Below are positions 6,674 through 43,985 of a DNA stretch of 45,275 nt, piece by piece. A program made the position numbers and the translations under genes. This DNA comes from Acidimicrobiia bacterium (GTDB lineage: Bacteria > Actinomycetota > Acidimicrobiia > Spongiisociales > SHLN01): contig JAOTYB010000001.1 in NCBI GenBank assembly GCA_029862065.1, positions 1-45,275 of the forward strand, given 5' to 3'. The notes under the pieces are model-generated. The model worked only from the letters and a program-made list of their open reading frames with translations, made no database searches and was not told where the DNA came from. Position 1 is the first letter of the stretch, and every line of letters begins with the position of its first letter.

Positions 6674-6690
6674 TGCGGGGCGAAGCCCCG

Positions 6691-6691
<1 letters not shown>
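6645..6691 (-). terminator. putative intrinsic terminator of glmS
   Basis: On the minus strand a perfect hairpin GCGGGGC-TTC-GCCCCGC overlaps the TAG stop. A second stem (GCGAC/GTCGC) follows, then TTTTT (6651..6647). Confidence 0.5.
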
Positions 6692-8526
<1,835 letters not shown>

Positions 8527-8599
8527 ACCAAAGCTCCTGTTCTGGAGTACCGGAGTGTGCGCGGTTGCGCGGTCCCACCTGAGTGGGCTCACATCCGCC

Positions 8600-8735
8600 G
8601 GGCCTCTGGGTCCGGGATCACTCCCGGGGTTTGGTCCCGTCGATTACGACCGTGAGCGGCCGAGAGGGCATCCGCCGAACATTTCGATAACCCTCTTCCT
8701 CGTCACCTCGCTCAAGCGAGGGCAGGCGCTGTATG
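8600..8735 (-). ncRNA. glmS ribozyme: glmS ribozyme (GlcN6P-dependent self-cleaving riboswitch, Rfam RF00234 type)
   Basis: The minus strand reads A|GCGCCUGCCCUCGCUUGAGCGAGGUGACGAGGAAGAGGGUUAUCGAAAUGUUCGGCGGAUGCCCUCUCGGCCG...ACCAAACCCCGGGAGUGAUCCCGG. This matches the B. subtilis core A|GCGCC...GACGAGGAUGGAGGUUAUCGAAUUUUCGGCGGAUGCCUCCCGGCUG...CAAACCAAGGGGGUGACUCC almost block for block. The predicted cleavage site is between 8730 and 8729. It lies about 80 nt upstream of the glmS ATG. Confidence 0.8.
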
Positions 8736-8822
8736 TATCTCCGGTACTCGCGTACCTATGTCGTATTAGAGGGTATCACTGATCCTGCGGTTCCCGTCAG
8801 GCTTGGCGCCAGGAGCGTCAGT

Positions 8823-8875
8823 CGGCATCCGGCATCCGGCATCCGGCATCCGGCATCCGGCATCCGGCATCCGGC
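8823..8875. repeat. heptanucleotide tandem array (CGGCATC) x ~7.5
   Basis: Direct reading gives cggcatc repeated without interruption. It is intergenic, between the glmM stop and the glmS ribozyme. Confidence 0.9.
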
Positions 8876-8909
8876 AAGCGTCCCCCCCTCGACTCATTGA
8901 CGCACGGAC

Positions 8910-8999
8910 GGAAAGCGAGCGGAGCGAGCGCCGGACACCGGAAAGCGAGCGGAGCGAGCGCCGGACACCGGAAAGCGAGCAAAGCGAGCGCCGAAAAGC
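8910..8999. repeat. 30-bp tandem repeat x3 (GGAAAGCGAGCGGAGCGAGCGCCGGACACC; third copy degenerate)
   Basis: Two identical 30-mers at 8910..8939 and 8940..8969, plus a diverged third. The repeat begins 14 nt after the glmM stop. Units are contiguous with no spacers. Confidence 0.85.
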
Positions 9000-11253: not shown

Positions 11254-11423
11254 GCGCACGGAACTCCCAAAAGGATGCGGGAACGCAGGAATGATAGCGG
11301 GATCTGCGCCCACCGCCAGCGGAAGAGGGCTATTCGGCCACGGACCGCGCAGTTGTCGCCGGTGCGCAGGACGCAGGACGCCGGACGCAGTAAGGCAGAG
11401 GTCCGAGGCCGTGCACCAGCAAG

Positions 11424-11520
11424 GTATTGCCTATTGCCTATTGCCTATTGCCCATTGCCTATTGCCTAATTGCCTATTGCCTATTGCCTATTGCCTAATT
11501 GCCTATTGCCTATTGCCTTG
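11424..11520. repeat. heptanucleotide tandem array (CTATTGC) x ~13, with two 8-nt variants (CTAATTGC) and one CCATTGC
   Basis: Direct reading. The array starts 15 nt after the truA stop and about 170 nt upstream of the rplM start. A short (GCAGGAC)x3-like run lies at 11364..11390. Confidence 0.9.
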
Positions 11521-11535
11521 CCGGCCCGATCTGAC

Positions 11536-12285
11536 CTAGAGACCCTGGTCATGCGGGTAGTGAACCTTCCACAGGAAGAGTCCACGGGCCGGAGCCGCCC
11601 CCTGGGCCGCATTGCGGTCGCCGCCTGTCAGCAACTCCTTCATATCGCCTGGCTCCCCATTGCTGCGGCCGATTTCGACGCACATCGCAACAATCGAGCG
11701 CACCATCTGATGGCAGAAGGCATTGGCCGTGACCCCAAACACCATCATGTCATCCTCCTCCGCCCGCCAATTGGCCTCAGAAATGGAGCGAATAGTCGAC
11801 TTGCCGGCACGTTTCCGACAGAACGCCGCAAAATCGTGATCCCCGATGACGTGGGCTGCCGCTTCGTTCATCCGGTCAAGTTCGACAGGATGCCGGTAGT
11901 GCCAGCTGGTTCGGGCCAGGAAGGGATCCGACCAGCGTCGGTTGAGGAGGAAGTACCGATAGCTGCGGCCGACCGCCGCATATCGGGCGTGGAACTCCGG
12001 CTCAACCTCGGTCACCGATTCGAACATCAGTTCCGGGCCCAGCATCCGATTGAGCGATCGATTGAGCGTGCCGACCCCGACCTGTCGCTCCGCTTCGACA
12101 TTGACCACCTGGTGGCGGGCATGCACTCCGGCGTCGGTGCGGCCCGCGACATGGGTGCGAATCGGGCCGAGCACCGGCACGAGTGCTTCCTGCAGTACGC
12201 CCTGGACGGTGCGCAGCCCCGGCTGGATGGCGTAGCCGTGGAAGTCCGTGCCGTCGTAGGAGAAGTCGAGCCGGTAGTTGGTCAT
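11536..12285 (-). CDS. truA: tRNA pseudouridine(38-40) synthase
   Basis: 249 aa with the catalytic motif GRTDAGVHA. Synteny rplQ-...-truA. GGAGGAGGAG lies directly upstream of the ATG. Confidence 0.9.
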   Translation of the reverse strand: MTNYRLDFSYDGTDFHGYAIQPGLRTVQGVLQEALVPVLGPIRTHVAGRTDAGVHARHQVVNVEAERQVGVGTLNRSLNRMLGPELMFESVTEVEPEFHARYAAVGRSYRYFLLNRRWSDPFLARTSWHYRHPVELDRMNEAAAHVIGDHDFAAFCRKRAGKSTIRSISEANWRAEEDDMMVFGVTANAFCHQMVRSIVAMCVEIGRSNGEPGDMKELLTGGDRNAAQGAAPARGLFLWKVHYPHDQGL

Positions 12286-12418: not shown

Positions 12419-13012
12419 CTAGAAGCCGGGAATGCCGACCAGCAACACCCACACAAACATCGCCGTTAGCGCCGAGCCGATCGCTCGCTCCTGGGTCATG
12501 TCGAGGTTGGATTGAAAACCTGTGACCATCATCGCCGCCGACCAGATGCCGAGGAAGATGAGGGCTGCCCCAATCGGAAAGCTCAAACGGGCGACGAGTG
12601 GGACCAAAACCAGCGGTGCGTGGGCGTAGCCGGTGATGGGCACAATCGCCCCGAAGTTGACCCGGCTTTCGAAGATGAAGGTTGAGATTGCATACACCGC
12701 ACCCGACCCAATGATCCAAGCGAACCCGCCTGCAATGAACAGTTGGATGAATTGGCTGACCGCATCAAATCCTGTGTCCAGGAAAGGCAGACCACTGGTA
12801 TTGAGTACCGAGGCAAACAGGACCCAGACCGCATACACGAGCCCGACGATGAGCACGGCGTCACCATTGGCGGATTGGTTGAACTGCATCCACACGTAGG
12901 CGTCGCGTTTGAGCTGGAGGGCCTGCCAAAGGCGTTGTGTTTCCATCAGTTCCCTAGAAGATGAAGCCAAGTATGCCGCGGGCGACGACGTAGACAATCC
13001 AACCGATGACAA
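12419..13012 (-). CDS. Yip1-domain membrane protein, C-terminal body; the N-terminal part of the family appears upstream in two other frames (see finding)
   Basis: Multi-TM ORF (..ITGYAHAPLVLVPL..IWSAAMMVTGFQSNLDMTQERAIGSAL..) resembling bacterial Yip1-family proteins. The most likely internal start is the ATG at 12946 (METQRLW). Confidence 0.55.
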   Translation of the reverse strand: MSSVGLSTSSPAAYLASSSRELMETQRLWQALQLKRDAYVWMQFNQSANGDAVLIVGLVYAVWVLFASVLNTSGLPFLDTGFDAVSQFIQLFIAGGFAWIIGSGAVYAISTFIFESRVNFGAIVPITGYAHAPLVLVPLVARLSFPIGAALIFLGIWSAAMMVTGFQSNLDMTQERAIGSALTAMFVWVLLVGIPGF

Positions 13013-13209
13013 CGGTGCCGACCGCCTTCTCCGGTATAACCGCGATCGGCTTCGACAGTCTCATACAGGTCGGCGTCAAGCTTGGCCGCCCGAATCATGC
13101 GTTGAAGCATTGGCTTTCCTTTTCCGTGATGTAGCAGAGTCCAGACTAGTTTTTCGCGGTCTACGGGGCAATGGGAGCCCTGGGGAACCTGCCGACCGAG
13201 GAGAGACGC

Positions 13210-13344
13210 GGCTACCAGCTACCAGTCGCCAGTTATTTCAATGTCGCAACCAGATTCCGCAGAGGCAACTAACGCCGTTCAGATTGATAACCCCGACAGA
13301 GGGAAGTCGATTCAGGGAGAACTGGTAGCTGGTAGCTGGTAGCC
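13210..13344 (+). repeat. intergenic repeat element, copy A (135 bp), with terminal inverted heptamer arrays
   Basis: Left end GGCTACCAGCTACCAG (13210..13225). Right end CTGGTAGCTGGTAGCTGGTAGCC (13322..13344). By eye about 80 percent identical over its full length to the reverse complement of 16787..16922. Confidence 0.8.
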
Positions 13345-13387
13345 GGCCGGCCTACTCGACGGCGACCCCTCGACCCAGCTCAACGAG

Positions 13388-13459
13388 CACCGCTCAGATT
13401 GATGACCCCGACAGAAGGAAGGCAATTCAGGGAGAGCTGGTAGCTGGTAGCTGGTAGCC
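13388..13459 (+). repeat. intergenic repeat element, partial copy A' (right half only)
   Basis: CACCGCTCAGATTGATGACCCCGACAGAAGGAAGGCAATTCAGGGAGAGCTGGTAGCTGGTAGCTGGTAGCC aligns with the right half of copy A. It ends 5 nt from the rplQ stop codon. Confidence 0.75.
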
Positions 13460-13464
13460 GCCCG

Positions 13465-13836
13465 CTACTCGGAGACCGAAGATCCCTCGACCAGCTCGAT
13501 CAAAGCCATCTCCGCCCCGTCGCCTCGGCGGGGGCCAAGTTTGAGGATGCGGGTGTAGCCGCCGGGTCGGTCGACGTAGCGAGGAGCGACCTCATCCATC
13601 AACTTCGTCACAACCTCAATGTCGTGAATGTGACGGAGGATCATCCGTCGGTCGTGGAGCGTGCCTTTACGGGCCTTGGTGATGAGTTTCTCCGCGTACG
13701 GCCGCAGCACCTTGGCTTTGGTGACGGTGGTCTCAATCCGGCCATCCCAGAACAAGGAGGCAGCCAGATTCGCCAGCATATGCCTCTGGTGCGAGGGGCT
13801 CTTGCCGAGCCGCTTACCCTTCCTGGGACGAGGCAT
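13465..13836 (-). CDS. rplQ: 50S ribosomal protein L17
   Basis: 123 aa, [29 protein letters not shown]... Follows rpoA. Confidence 0.9.
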
Positions 13837-16469: not shown

Positions 16470-16586
16470 CTATCCCTGTCGCTGCTTATGCCGGGGGTTG
16501 GCGGGGCAGATCACCCATACGCGGCCGTGCCGTCGGATGACCCGACAACGCTCGCACATTCTCTTGGCCGATGGTCGAACTTTCAT
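16470..16586 (-). CDS. rpmJ: 50S ribosomal protein L36 (zinc-ribbon form)
   Basis: Own translation gives [38 protein letters not shown]. It is below the ORF-track length cut-off and lies 3 nt upstream of rpsM. Confidence 0.85.
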
Positions 16587-16745
16587 GCGTCCCGCTGTTT
16601 CGTCGAGAGAGGCAAGCGCACGGTTCCAGGCAGCATTCCATTTGCGGATCTCCCGGGGTGAGCGAGCGAGCAGGCTCTCGATCTCAAAATTACGTCGTCT
16701 TACTCACCACGAACCTCATGAACCCCGCGGCAAGCCAGACGAGCA

Positions 16746-16775
16746 ATGATAGCCAGCGTTTATGGCTAACAGCAA
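16746..16775 (-). promoter_or_regulatory. candidate sigma-A type promoter for the rpmJ-rpsM-rpsK-rpsD-rpoA-rplQ unit
   Basis: The minus strand reads TTGCTG-N18-TATCAT in a locally AT-richer stretch about 160 nt upstream of rpmJ. This is a pattern match only. Confidence 0.3.
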
Positions 16776-16786
16776 GCTGAATAAAG

Positions 16787-16922
16787 CTGCCAGCTACCAG
16801 CTACCAGTTCACCCCGAATCGAACTTCCTTTTGGTCGGGGTCGTCAATCTTGAACGGCGGTTGCTGCCTCTGCGGAGTCTGGTTGAAGGCCAGAGATGAC
16901 TGGCGACTGGAAGCTGGCAGCC
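16787..16922 (-). repeat. intergenic repeat element, copy B (136 bp; orientation opposite to copy A)
   Basis: The reverse complement reads GGCTGCCAGCTTCCAGTCGCCAGTC...CCGCAGAGGCAGCAACCGCCGTTCAAGATTGACGACCCCGACC...GAACTGGTAGCTGGTAGCTGGCAGC, colinear with copy A. It starts 5 nt after the map stop codon. Confidence 0.8.
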
Positions 16923-16927
16923 ATCCG

Positions 16928-17677
16928 CTAGCCCTCCCGGGTCATTACCTCAACCCCGCTGGGGGTTATCGCGATGGTGTTTTCGAAGTGGGCGGACAGA
17001 CTGCCGTCGGCGGTGGTGACGGTCCAGCCGTCGTCCTGCAATTCAGTTCGCCAATCCCCCATGTTGACCATCGGCTCGATACAAATGGCCATGCCTTCCT
17101 TGAGTTTCATGCCCTTTCCGGCCTCGCCATAATTGGGTATTTGTGGTTCCTCGTGCATTTGCTTGCCGATTCCGTGTCCGACGTACTCCCGAACCACGGA
17201 GAATCCGGCCCCCTCAGCTACCTGTTGAACGGCCGCTCCGATGTCGCCGATGCGGGCACCGGCCTTCACCTGTTCAATCCCGGCCTCCATCGACTCCTCG
17301 GTGGCCCGGATCAGCTTGGCTACCTCGTCGGGAACATCGCCGATGGGGAGTGTTCGGGCAGCATCACCGTGGTAACCCTCGAAGATGGCGCCCACATCGA
17401 CCGACAGGATGTCCCCGTCTTTGAGTGTGTAGCCGTCAGGGATGCCGTGGACGATGACATTATTCGGTGAGGTGCAGATCGTGGCCGGGTAGCCGTGATA
17501 CCCGAGGAACGAGGGGGTGCAACCGCCGTCGCGGATGATCGCGGCCGCGATCTGGTCGAGATCGTTCATTGTGACACCCGGCTCGGCCGCCTTTCGGAGC
17601 GCGGTCAGGACCTCGGCCACGACTCGGCTGGCGGTCCGCATCTTGGCAAACCCATCGGCGTCCTTGATGGTTATCAC
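16928..17677 (-). CDS. map: type I methionine aminopeptidase
   Basis: 249 aa with metal ligand contexts (..SVDVGA.., ..EYVGHGIG.., ..ICIEPM.., ..HFENT..). Follows adk with a 4-nt overlap. Confidence 0.9.
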   Translation of the reverse strand: MITIKDADGFAKMRTASRVVAEVLTALRKAAEPGVTMNDLDQIAAAIIRDGGCTPSFLGYHGYPATICTSPNNVIVHGIPDGYTLKDGDILSVDVGAIFEGYHGDAARTLPIGDVPDEVAKLIRATEESMEAGIEQVKAGARIGDIGAAVQQVAEGAGFSVVREYVGHGIGKQMHEEPQIPNYGEAGKGMKLKEGMAICIEPMVNMGDWRTELQDDGWTVTTADGSLSAHFENTIAITPSGVEVMTREG

Positions 17678-20050: not shown

Positions 20051-20114
20051 CGCGTCAACCAGCCTCACCCGTGAGTGGGGGCGCGAACAGTCAACTGTCA
20101 ACTGCTAACTCTCG

Positions 20115-43855: not shown

Positions 43856-43985
43856 ACAACGTGCTATGGGCGACCTCGACCCGTAGGGAGGTCGGCTCAG
43901 TTGTCCTCCCAGCAACATACCGCGCAGGGATGGGAGGGTCAAGGACTAGGGCCTACCGCCCATTGCCGACCGCCAGCCGCCTCTG

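Follow-up and report, generated by a model that had tools for sequence, protein, structure and literature searches.

A palindromic intergenic repeat with heptamer arms in operon-end gaps of an uncultured member of the Acidimicrobiia

Results

Genes and repeat copies at the locus

The host contig belongs to an uncultured member of the Acidimicrobiia (Actinomycetota) with a GC content of 63%, whose RpoA is 86-89% identical to proteins from Acidimicrobiia MAGs. The window, by which we mean the whole 45,275-nucleotide stretch of DNA analysed, consists mostly of ribosomal-protein, rpoBC and housekeeping operons, nearly all of them on the minus strand. Three samples have ENA assemblies with identical sequence (ERZ28013244, ERZ27296376, and ERZ27296365), and one JGI sample (3300022220) contains a short stretch of it. 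The window contains copies of a palindromic element, all of them intergenic, which are listed here with their parts and neighbouring features.

13210..13344, plus strand (reference orientation, antisense to the rplQ mRNA): copy A, the full element, 135 nt, covariance-model score 136.6 bits
13210..13234, plus strand: left arm of A, GGCTACCA GCTACCA GTCGCCA GTT, two CTACCAG-type heptamers and a degenerate third unit
13235..13319, plus strand: core of A, 85 nt, with blocks CCGCAGAGGCA and GATTGAYRACCCCGAC common to B and A', without a conserved fold
13320..13344, plus strand: right arm of A, AA CTGGTAG CTGGTAG CTGGTAG CC
13345..13380, plus strand: spacer between A and A', with weak likeness to a degenerate left arm (CGGCGAC, CCAGCT)
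13381..13459, plus strand: A', a partial tandem copy with the right half of the core and the right arm, 79 nt, 89% identical to A
16786..16922, minus strand: copy B, likewise a full element (137 nt), inverted with respect to A and in the sense of the map mRNA, covariance-model score 136.4 bits
6520..6673, minus strand: copy C, 154 nt, of the same design, 3' of glmS, its stem with 5 mismatches
6676..6690, minus strand: small GC-rich hairpin, CGGGGC-UUC-GCCCCG in the mRNA, between the glmS stop codon (6691-6693) and copy C

Copy A starts with GGCTACCAGCTACCAG and finishes with CTGGTAGCTGGTAGCTGGTAGCC, and its position and both of its ends are as given in the initial annotation of this DNA. In general terms, the unit is about 135 nt long and consists of two arms of about 25 nt, each with two or three tandem heptamers (left arm CTACCAG, right arm CTGGTAG), around an interior of 85-105 nt. 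An imperfect arm heptamer, GTCGCCAG, is present in every full element. Period-7 rows were reported by TRF at 13211-13225, 13322-13343, 13435-13458, and 16785-16807, and the heptamer doublet CTGGTAGCTGGTAG, with up to two mismatches allowed, occurs 11 times in the window against 0.07 occurrences expected, all 11 inside the named copies.

The partial copy A' had been described as a second right half beginning at 13388; such a half is indeed present, and its likeness to A starts at 13381, with a second alignment extending over 84 nt at 88% identity. From its sequence, the spacer between A and A' could weakly be read as a degenerate left arm. A' ends 5 nt before the rplQ stop codon (CTA at 13465-13467, minus strand), and copy B starts 5 nt after the map stop codon (16928-16930), both as first described, and ends 10 nt before the conserved -35 element TTGCTG (16770-16775).

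A, A', and B are copies of one unit

Copies A and B are 82% identical overall, where about 80% had been estimated by eye, and 78% identical in the core of 85-88 nt. Their likeness extends precisely to the outer ends of the arms and no further, with unrelated sequences on either side. An HMM built from the cores of A and B with the arms removed recovered A (E = 5e-25), B (E = 2e-27), and A' (E = 9e-8). The likeness is therefore not confined to the heptamers, a possibility that the initial annotation had raised against its own reading, and the three are copies of one unit.

Copy C was missed by the core-only HMM (E > 10) and was detected, in a strand-specific manner, by a model that included the arms (E = 1.5e-8). 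Detection solely with the arms included means that C shares with A and B the arms, the arm-adjacent bases (CAGTTnTT and GAGAACTGG), and the architecture, while homology of the core is not demonstrable; its earlier designation as a diverged copy thus holds for arms and architecture and not for the core. Judging from the sequence, the interior of C may be a different one or may have diverged past recognition. The imperfect pairing of the third heptamer (U-G / C-A / G-U) is identical in A, B, and C, which argues for one template as their ancestor and against independent growth of the hairpins.

A search with nhmmer yielded no additional copy in the window or in the 4 kb past its left end. In the approximately 49 kb of this genome that were covered, the core is shared by 2 full copies and 1 partial copy, and 1 additional copy shares the arms only; the core-sharing copies occupy two loci that are 3.4 kb apart.

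Fold and coding potential

The full copies each fold with a 25-bp closing stem of CTACCAG/CTGGTAG heptamers. In A, the arms (13210-13234 / 13320-13344) form 16 perfect base pairs, followed by U-G, a C/A mismatch, G-U, and then 6 further pairs, so that the 25 positions comprise 22 Watson-Crick pairs, 2 G-U (T-G) pairs, and 1 C/A mismatch; a perfect closing stem of at least 16 bp, as claimed at the outset, is accordingly present and can be extended to 25. The RNA fold of A has a free energy of -64.7 kcal/mol (z = -6.8), and none of 200 shuffled sequences was as stable. The opposite strand reaches -63.1 kcal/mol (z = -4.9), and A' alone folds no better than shuffled sequences (z = -0.2 and -1.3).

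When A, B, C, and the outside relative described below are folded to a consensus, the closing stem alone survives, and there is no core helix. A search for compensatory changes had been suggested. The stem of B carries one A-U to G-C double change that keeps the pairing, but the 3 pairs changed on both sides among these four sequences are not distinguishable from chance, as 110 of 500 shuffles equalled or exceeded that number.

No conserved reading frame was found in the element. A reading as a small peptide was dropped: one frame is open in both A and B, but indels shift the frame between them. Trimmed translations of all open frames of A and B, with the heptamers removed, had no match among 5.8 billion predicted proteins. 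Within the window, Rfam gave a single match above the gathering threshold, which is the glmS ribozyme and not the element, and a permissive Rfam scan of 13210's surroundings (13100-13470) returned a chance match alone (E = 0.31), in line with the initial statement that no known RNA family was recognised. The element is likewise confirmed as a non-coding palindrome that is found in either orientation with respect to transcription and starts a few bases past stop codons.

Gaps, promoters, and 3' ends in the host genome

Each copy fills the gap from a stop codon (rplQ, map, or glmS) to the next promoter or gene start. Past B lies the promoter TTGCTG-18-TATCAT, which is kept in all relatives upstream of the (infA)-rpmJ-rpsM operon, and past A lies the motif CGCGAAAAACTAGTCT, which is conserved upstream of Yip1-family genes and truA. 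With respect to the transcript, A is antisense, and B and C are sense. On the mRNA strand, B is followed by UUUAUU, A by GCGUCUCU, and C by ACUCCCUG; only the tail of B is U-rich, and the canonical intrinsic terminator, a hairpin with a U-tract, does not describe the element. Of 18 gap hairpins, 11 are more stable on the sense strand; A and B, in contrast, fold slightly better on the antisense strand. No site resembling a promoter was detected.

The flanks are GACGC|...|GGCCGG for A, CGGAT|...|TTTATT for B, and CCGCA|...|ACTCCC for C, and none of the three shows a target-site duplication, as had been observed before. Neither a RAYT nor any other transposase is encoded in the 49 kb, all genes in the window and in L144, an assembly of the same region from another sample, being housekeeping genes. 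No parent insertion sequence (IS) with matching ends was found in the window, and there was no match in plasmids, phages, or IMG/VR.

Heptamer arrays in the window also follow the stop codons of secY, truA, glmM, and a hydantoinase-B-like gene on minus-strand transcripts, at positions 8823-8876, 8909-8993, 11365-11390, 11425-11518, 20086-20104, and 43941-43983. Downstream of glmM they consist of (GATGCCG)x7.7 and a 30-mer x2.8, downstream of truA of (GGCAATA)x13 and (TCCTGCG)x3.7, downstream of secY of (TGACAGT)-type units, and downstream of the hydantoinase-B-like gene of degenerate GGCGGTN units. Two of these arrays contain the breakpoints of assemblies from other samples, L001 ending at about 11499 and L144 starting at about 8780 in window coordinates.

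About 3.5 kb past the left end of the window (L144 11722-11939), a canonical U-tract terminator, AAAUCCCGGCGCC-UCG-GCGCCGGGAUUUCUCUU, follows groEL in two direct copies of about 60 nt each, with a second hairpin between them. This pair indicates that the organism does use classical terminators and duplicates 3'-end modules locally.

The same gaps in related genomes

The corresponding region was compared, with 10-kb flanks, in five related genomes (L122/L123/L147, L125, L126, L127, and L149), whose RpoA proteins are 86-88% identical to that of the host. The core of A and B is absent from all these relatives. In L149 the gaps are nearly empty, with 15 nt from the map stop codon to the -35 element and 4 nt from the rplQ stop codon to the promoter motif, which indicates that the copies arose by insertion or expansion and that the sequence is not ancestral. 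The element is thus present or absent at orthologous sites (B and A'+A against the gaps of L149), in a comparison made at about 87% RpoA identity and not between strains.

Other relatives carry heptamers of their own in these positions. L125 has (CCCAAGT)4 paired with TTGGGAC-type units after map, (CTTGGGT)12 after truA, and CCCACCG-type arrays after glmM and glmS, the latter followed by a short complementary arm. L126 (GCA_013043405.1) has (GTCAGTR)4 after map and, in addition, a two-copy family of its own, located at 11341-11650 after rplQ and, inverted, at 13078-13263, 5 nt after the truA stop codon; the two copies are 84% identical over 192 nt, bounded by GTCGCCG/CGGCGAC arrays, and 1.7 kb apart. 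L127, with the same RpoA as L126, differs in this element (11341-11664) by two heptamer units in one arm.

In the loci L122, L125, L126, L001, and L144, the intergenic DNA (8.4 kb) contains 16 period-7 arrays with a combined length of 510 nt, and the genes (79 kb) contain 0; no other period between 5 and 12 was represented by more than one intergenic array. No array was found in the corresponding region of three related genomes (L122/L147 and L149).

Search for relatives elsewhere

A search with the 18-mer CTGGTAGCTGGTAGCTGG against GTDB genomes yielded more than 118 loci at least, in many phyla, and the core of A and B was present in none of the GTDB matches listed for it. When these loci were scanned with nhmmer and the covariance model, the only relative at arm level was L042, together with heptamer hairpins that have other interiors. 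This best outside relative (L042 2897-3036, from the Acidimicrobiia MAG_seacave_84, JBPCTX01) starts 9 nt after a TAG and has the same design, with a few short matching blocks; it gains no support from the core-only model (E = 0.46), and the match is at arm level only. The pattern CCCCGACN{15,35}CTGGTAGCTGGTAG matched 16 loci in JGI metagenomes, 0 of which were family members, and with the seeds used no family member was found in IMG/VR, plasmids, or phages.

Hairpins of the form (CTACCAG)n...(CTGGNAG)n with unrelated interiors were detected by the covariance model in an Acidobacteriota MAG (three sites), in other Actinomycetota, and in a Bacteroidota MAG. Such hairpins lie at L010 6611-6735 and 7610-7731, L054 4235-4358, L011 4684-4772, L085 5294-5369, L073 6437-6515, L113 1715-1867, and L069 177-330, and in L085 the arms pair fully only when G-U pairs are counted on the mRNA-sense strand. 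Many of the cross-phylum heptamer hairpins stand directly after apparent stop codons. For an analysis of their positions across phyla, gene calls by longest ORF were too noisy in high-GC genomes.

Discussion

A repeat of the REP/MITE-like class

Our results show that at least two gaps hold copies of one discrete palindromic unit, in both orientations, and that in relatives these gaps are empty or have a different content. The arms exemplify a clade-wide habit of forming arrays, specific to period 7, just after stop codons and often as inverted pairs. Taken together, we consider it probable that the element is a palindromic repeat of the REP/REPIN/MITE-like kind, non-coding and restricted to its lineage, which was copied into permissive operon-end gaps and forms a 3'-end RNA hairpin once transcribed. 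It is apparently a new, lineage-restricted example of this familiar class and not a new kind of system. The assignment to REP/BIME- or MITE-like elements made in the initial annotation agrees with the design and the placement of the copies, but a RAYT or transposase is missing from the 49 kb and no further copy was found there.

The unit was copied as a block, in either orientation, into the dispensable DNA of compact operons, namely the gaps that separate a stop codon from the promoter or gene start that follows. That the copies stand beside stop codons may simply follow from the fact that these gaps contain the only dispensable DNA. The arms may have grown by slippage in steps of 7 nt, followed by hairpin-templated correction of the opposite arm, and candidate routes for the copying are a transposase acting in trans or arm-primed recombination between hairpins with like arms.

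When transcribed in either orientation, the 25-bp stem would give the upstream message a very stable 3'-terminal hairpin, which would most likely act as a barrier to 3' exonucleases or as a double-stranded processing site. B, with its UUUAUU tail, could possibly be a weak intrinsic terminator between adjacent operons. The broader proposal that the element doubles as a terminator fares poorly. The empty gaps in relatives, the lack of a U-tract in A and C, and the about equal folding of both strands, with no advantage for the sense strand, argue against an essential terminator role. Purified mycobacterial RNA polymerase, the only actinobacterial enzyme tested, did not terminate without a U-tract (PMC3993855). 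Given that relatives have empty gaps, any role of the hairpin is probably incidental and not essential.

Comparison with known systems

REPs and REPINs are extragenic palindromes in which REP doublets form long hairpins and are mobilised by RAYT transposases (PMC3116915, PMC2817692). The present element resembles them in being extragenic, non-coding, palindromic, found in either orientation without target-site duplication, often just 3' of genes, and species-specific as a family; its long hairpin of about 100-140 nt is like that of a REPIN, and GTAG occurs in each arm unit. In contrast to REPs, which are individually palindromic, the arms here are direct tandem heptamers and not half-palindromes, and 2-3 copies were seen in about 49 kb, which encode no RAYT, compared with tens to hundreds of copies per genome. 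The tandem pair A'/A is direct, whereas BIMEs alternate.

Correia elements of Neisseria are about 100-155 bp long with inverted ends of about 26 bp, and they are reported to form hairpins, to be co-transcribed, and to be sensitive to RNase III. Bacterial MITEs in general have been reviewed (PMC3184786, PMC10969869). In common with MITEs and Correia elements, the repeat has its size, inverted termini of about 25 nt, a lack of coding capacity, an intergenic location beside genes, and a hairpin that, once transcribed, could influence the ends of mRNAs; unlike them, it shows no target-site duplication and, within the window, no parent IS with matching ends, and its termini are simple slippage arrays.

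An excess of intergenic heptanucleotide tandem repeats in bacteria is attributed to polymerase slippage (Mrazek 2007, via PMC4679880, PMC4692102), and the cyanobacterial STRRs as well as inverted GGGAATC arrays in Xanthomonas that are capable of forming stem-loops are described (PMC4679880, PMC4692102). The claim of novelty has to be seen against this background, since intergenic heptanucleotide arrays, inverted ones included, were known before. The period-7 arms are likewise confined to intergenic DNA and vary in unit number between strains. Here, however, short arrays bound a conserved 85-nt core that was copied between loci, and both the heptamer and the host phylum differ.

Hairpins without U-tracts have also been proposed as noncanonical mycobacterial terminators; these are short and single-copy, and they failed to terminate purified mycobacterial RNA polymerase (PMC3993855). 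A stable hairpin immediately after a stop codon, mostly without a U-tract, in a high-GC actinobacterium is common to both cases, whereas the 25-bp stem, the large interior, and the repetition of the sequence set the present element apart.

Alternative explanations

It is possible, without being probable, that nothing here is mobile. The hairpins would then have grown locally by 7-nt slippage and quasi-palindrome correction, the core shared by A and B would stem from one ectopic gene conversion or duplication between two adjacent hairpins whose arms are alike, and the apparent family would amount to two loci. The core-sharing copies are indeed close to each other (3.4 kb in the window, 1.7 kb in L126), although with about 49 kb examined this closeness may reflect sampling. 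The sharing of arms and not cores by C and L042, the separate heptamers of each genome in equivalent gaps, the different unit numbers in the nearly identical L126 and L127, and the local tandem duplication evident for A' and the groEL terminator all agree with such growth. However, at 25 nt the arms are close to the minimum length for homologous recombination, and an imperfection is conserved in three elements up to 10 kb apart.

A doubtful reading is that of a selfish non-autonomous transposon (MITE/REPIN) that has no host function and is mobilised by a transposase acting in trans from another part of the genome; candidates would be a RAYT, an IS200/IS605-type enzyme that recognises hairpins, or an IS with arm-like ends. 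The position after stop codons would then be where insertions are tolerated. This would account for a discrete unit with sharp ends, 25-nt inverted termini, and both orientations, and for the empty sites in L149; relatives do without a hairpin in these places. GTAG, the tetranucleotide conserved in REPs, lies within every CTGGTAG unit. Set against this are the missing target-site duplication, the lack of a transposase in 49 kb, the mere 2-3 copies seen, and the lack of anything similar in plasmids, phages, and IMG/VR; moreover, the arms are slippage arrays whose unit number varies in the L126 family, which would be unusual for the ends bound by a transposase.

Heptamer-armed palindromes might also constitute a distinct, self-renewing class of operon-end elements, maintained by slippage and hairpin-templated correction, with interiors swapped via the shared arms, and acting as a modular 3'-end insulator. 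We think this unlikely; if true, it would provide a mechanism for the birth and spread of repeats that needs no transposase.

BIMEs bind IHF and gyrase, and an element of the present kind could in principle be a site at the DNA level, either a cruciform or a protein-binding palindrome that acts on supercoiling or domain boundaries between highly transcribed operons. The palindrome is independent of orientation, lies between very highly expressed ribosomal operons, and favors neither RNA strand consistently, yet relatives do without it at equivalent sites and no protein partner can be named, so that we regard this role as very unlikely.

A strand-specific structured RNA, whether an sRNA or a cis-regulatory 3'-UTR element with its function in the core, is hardly credible: the core blocks GCAGAGGCA and GATTGAYRACCCCGAC are conserved between A and B, and the G-U pairs of one small hairpin in the core of A can form on a single strand only, but A and B lie in opposite directions relative to the flanking transcripts, the consensus fold has no core helix, there is neither an Rfam match nor a promoter-like site, the core is missing from all relatives, and that of C is not detectably related.

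Three further candidates were considered and dropped. An integron attC site does not fit core housekeeping host genes and the lack of a GTTRRRY/RYYYAAC motif; UAG-N4 repeats of the HutP type do not fit the heptamers of the relatives, which lack UAG; and a module providing a stop codon in all three frames does not fit the orientation found after rplQ and map, which contains no stops.

Significance

If a census of the full genome confirmed the family, it would be the first REP/MITE-like repeat described for the poorly studied, uncultured Acidimicrobiia, and it could serve for strain typing, for explaining breaks in metagenome assemblies, and for annotating operon ends. The element alone opens no long-standing question, and the comparative series of hairpins is the more interesting lead. 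The gaps, empty in one genome and filled with a different heptamer hairpin in another, form a natural series on the birth of palindromes from slippage arrays, and the same series asks whether 3'-end structures are selected or merely tolerated.

Other features of the locus

Between B and rpmJ (16470-16586), at about 16590-16700 on the minus strand, lies a remnant of infA, whose normal place is between map and rpmJ. The remnant has no tblastn match, and its likeness to the remnant in L122 is confined to the DNA level; infA of L122 is a pseudogene, 64% identical over 39 aa and interrupted by a stop codon, and the gene is intact in L125, L126, and L149. A functional infA must be located elsewhere in the genome. 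The first Yip1-family gene downstream of A (12957-13110, minus strand) is internally deleted and retains, in different frames, residues 1-28 and 136-159 of a 159-aa relative, and the second (12422-12946) aligns over its full length with 77% identity. The glmS ribozyme (RF00234, 97.6 bits) lies upstream of glmS at 8586-8741 on the minus strand and is conserved in all relatives.
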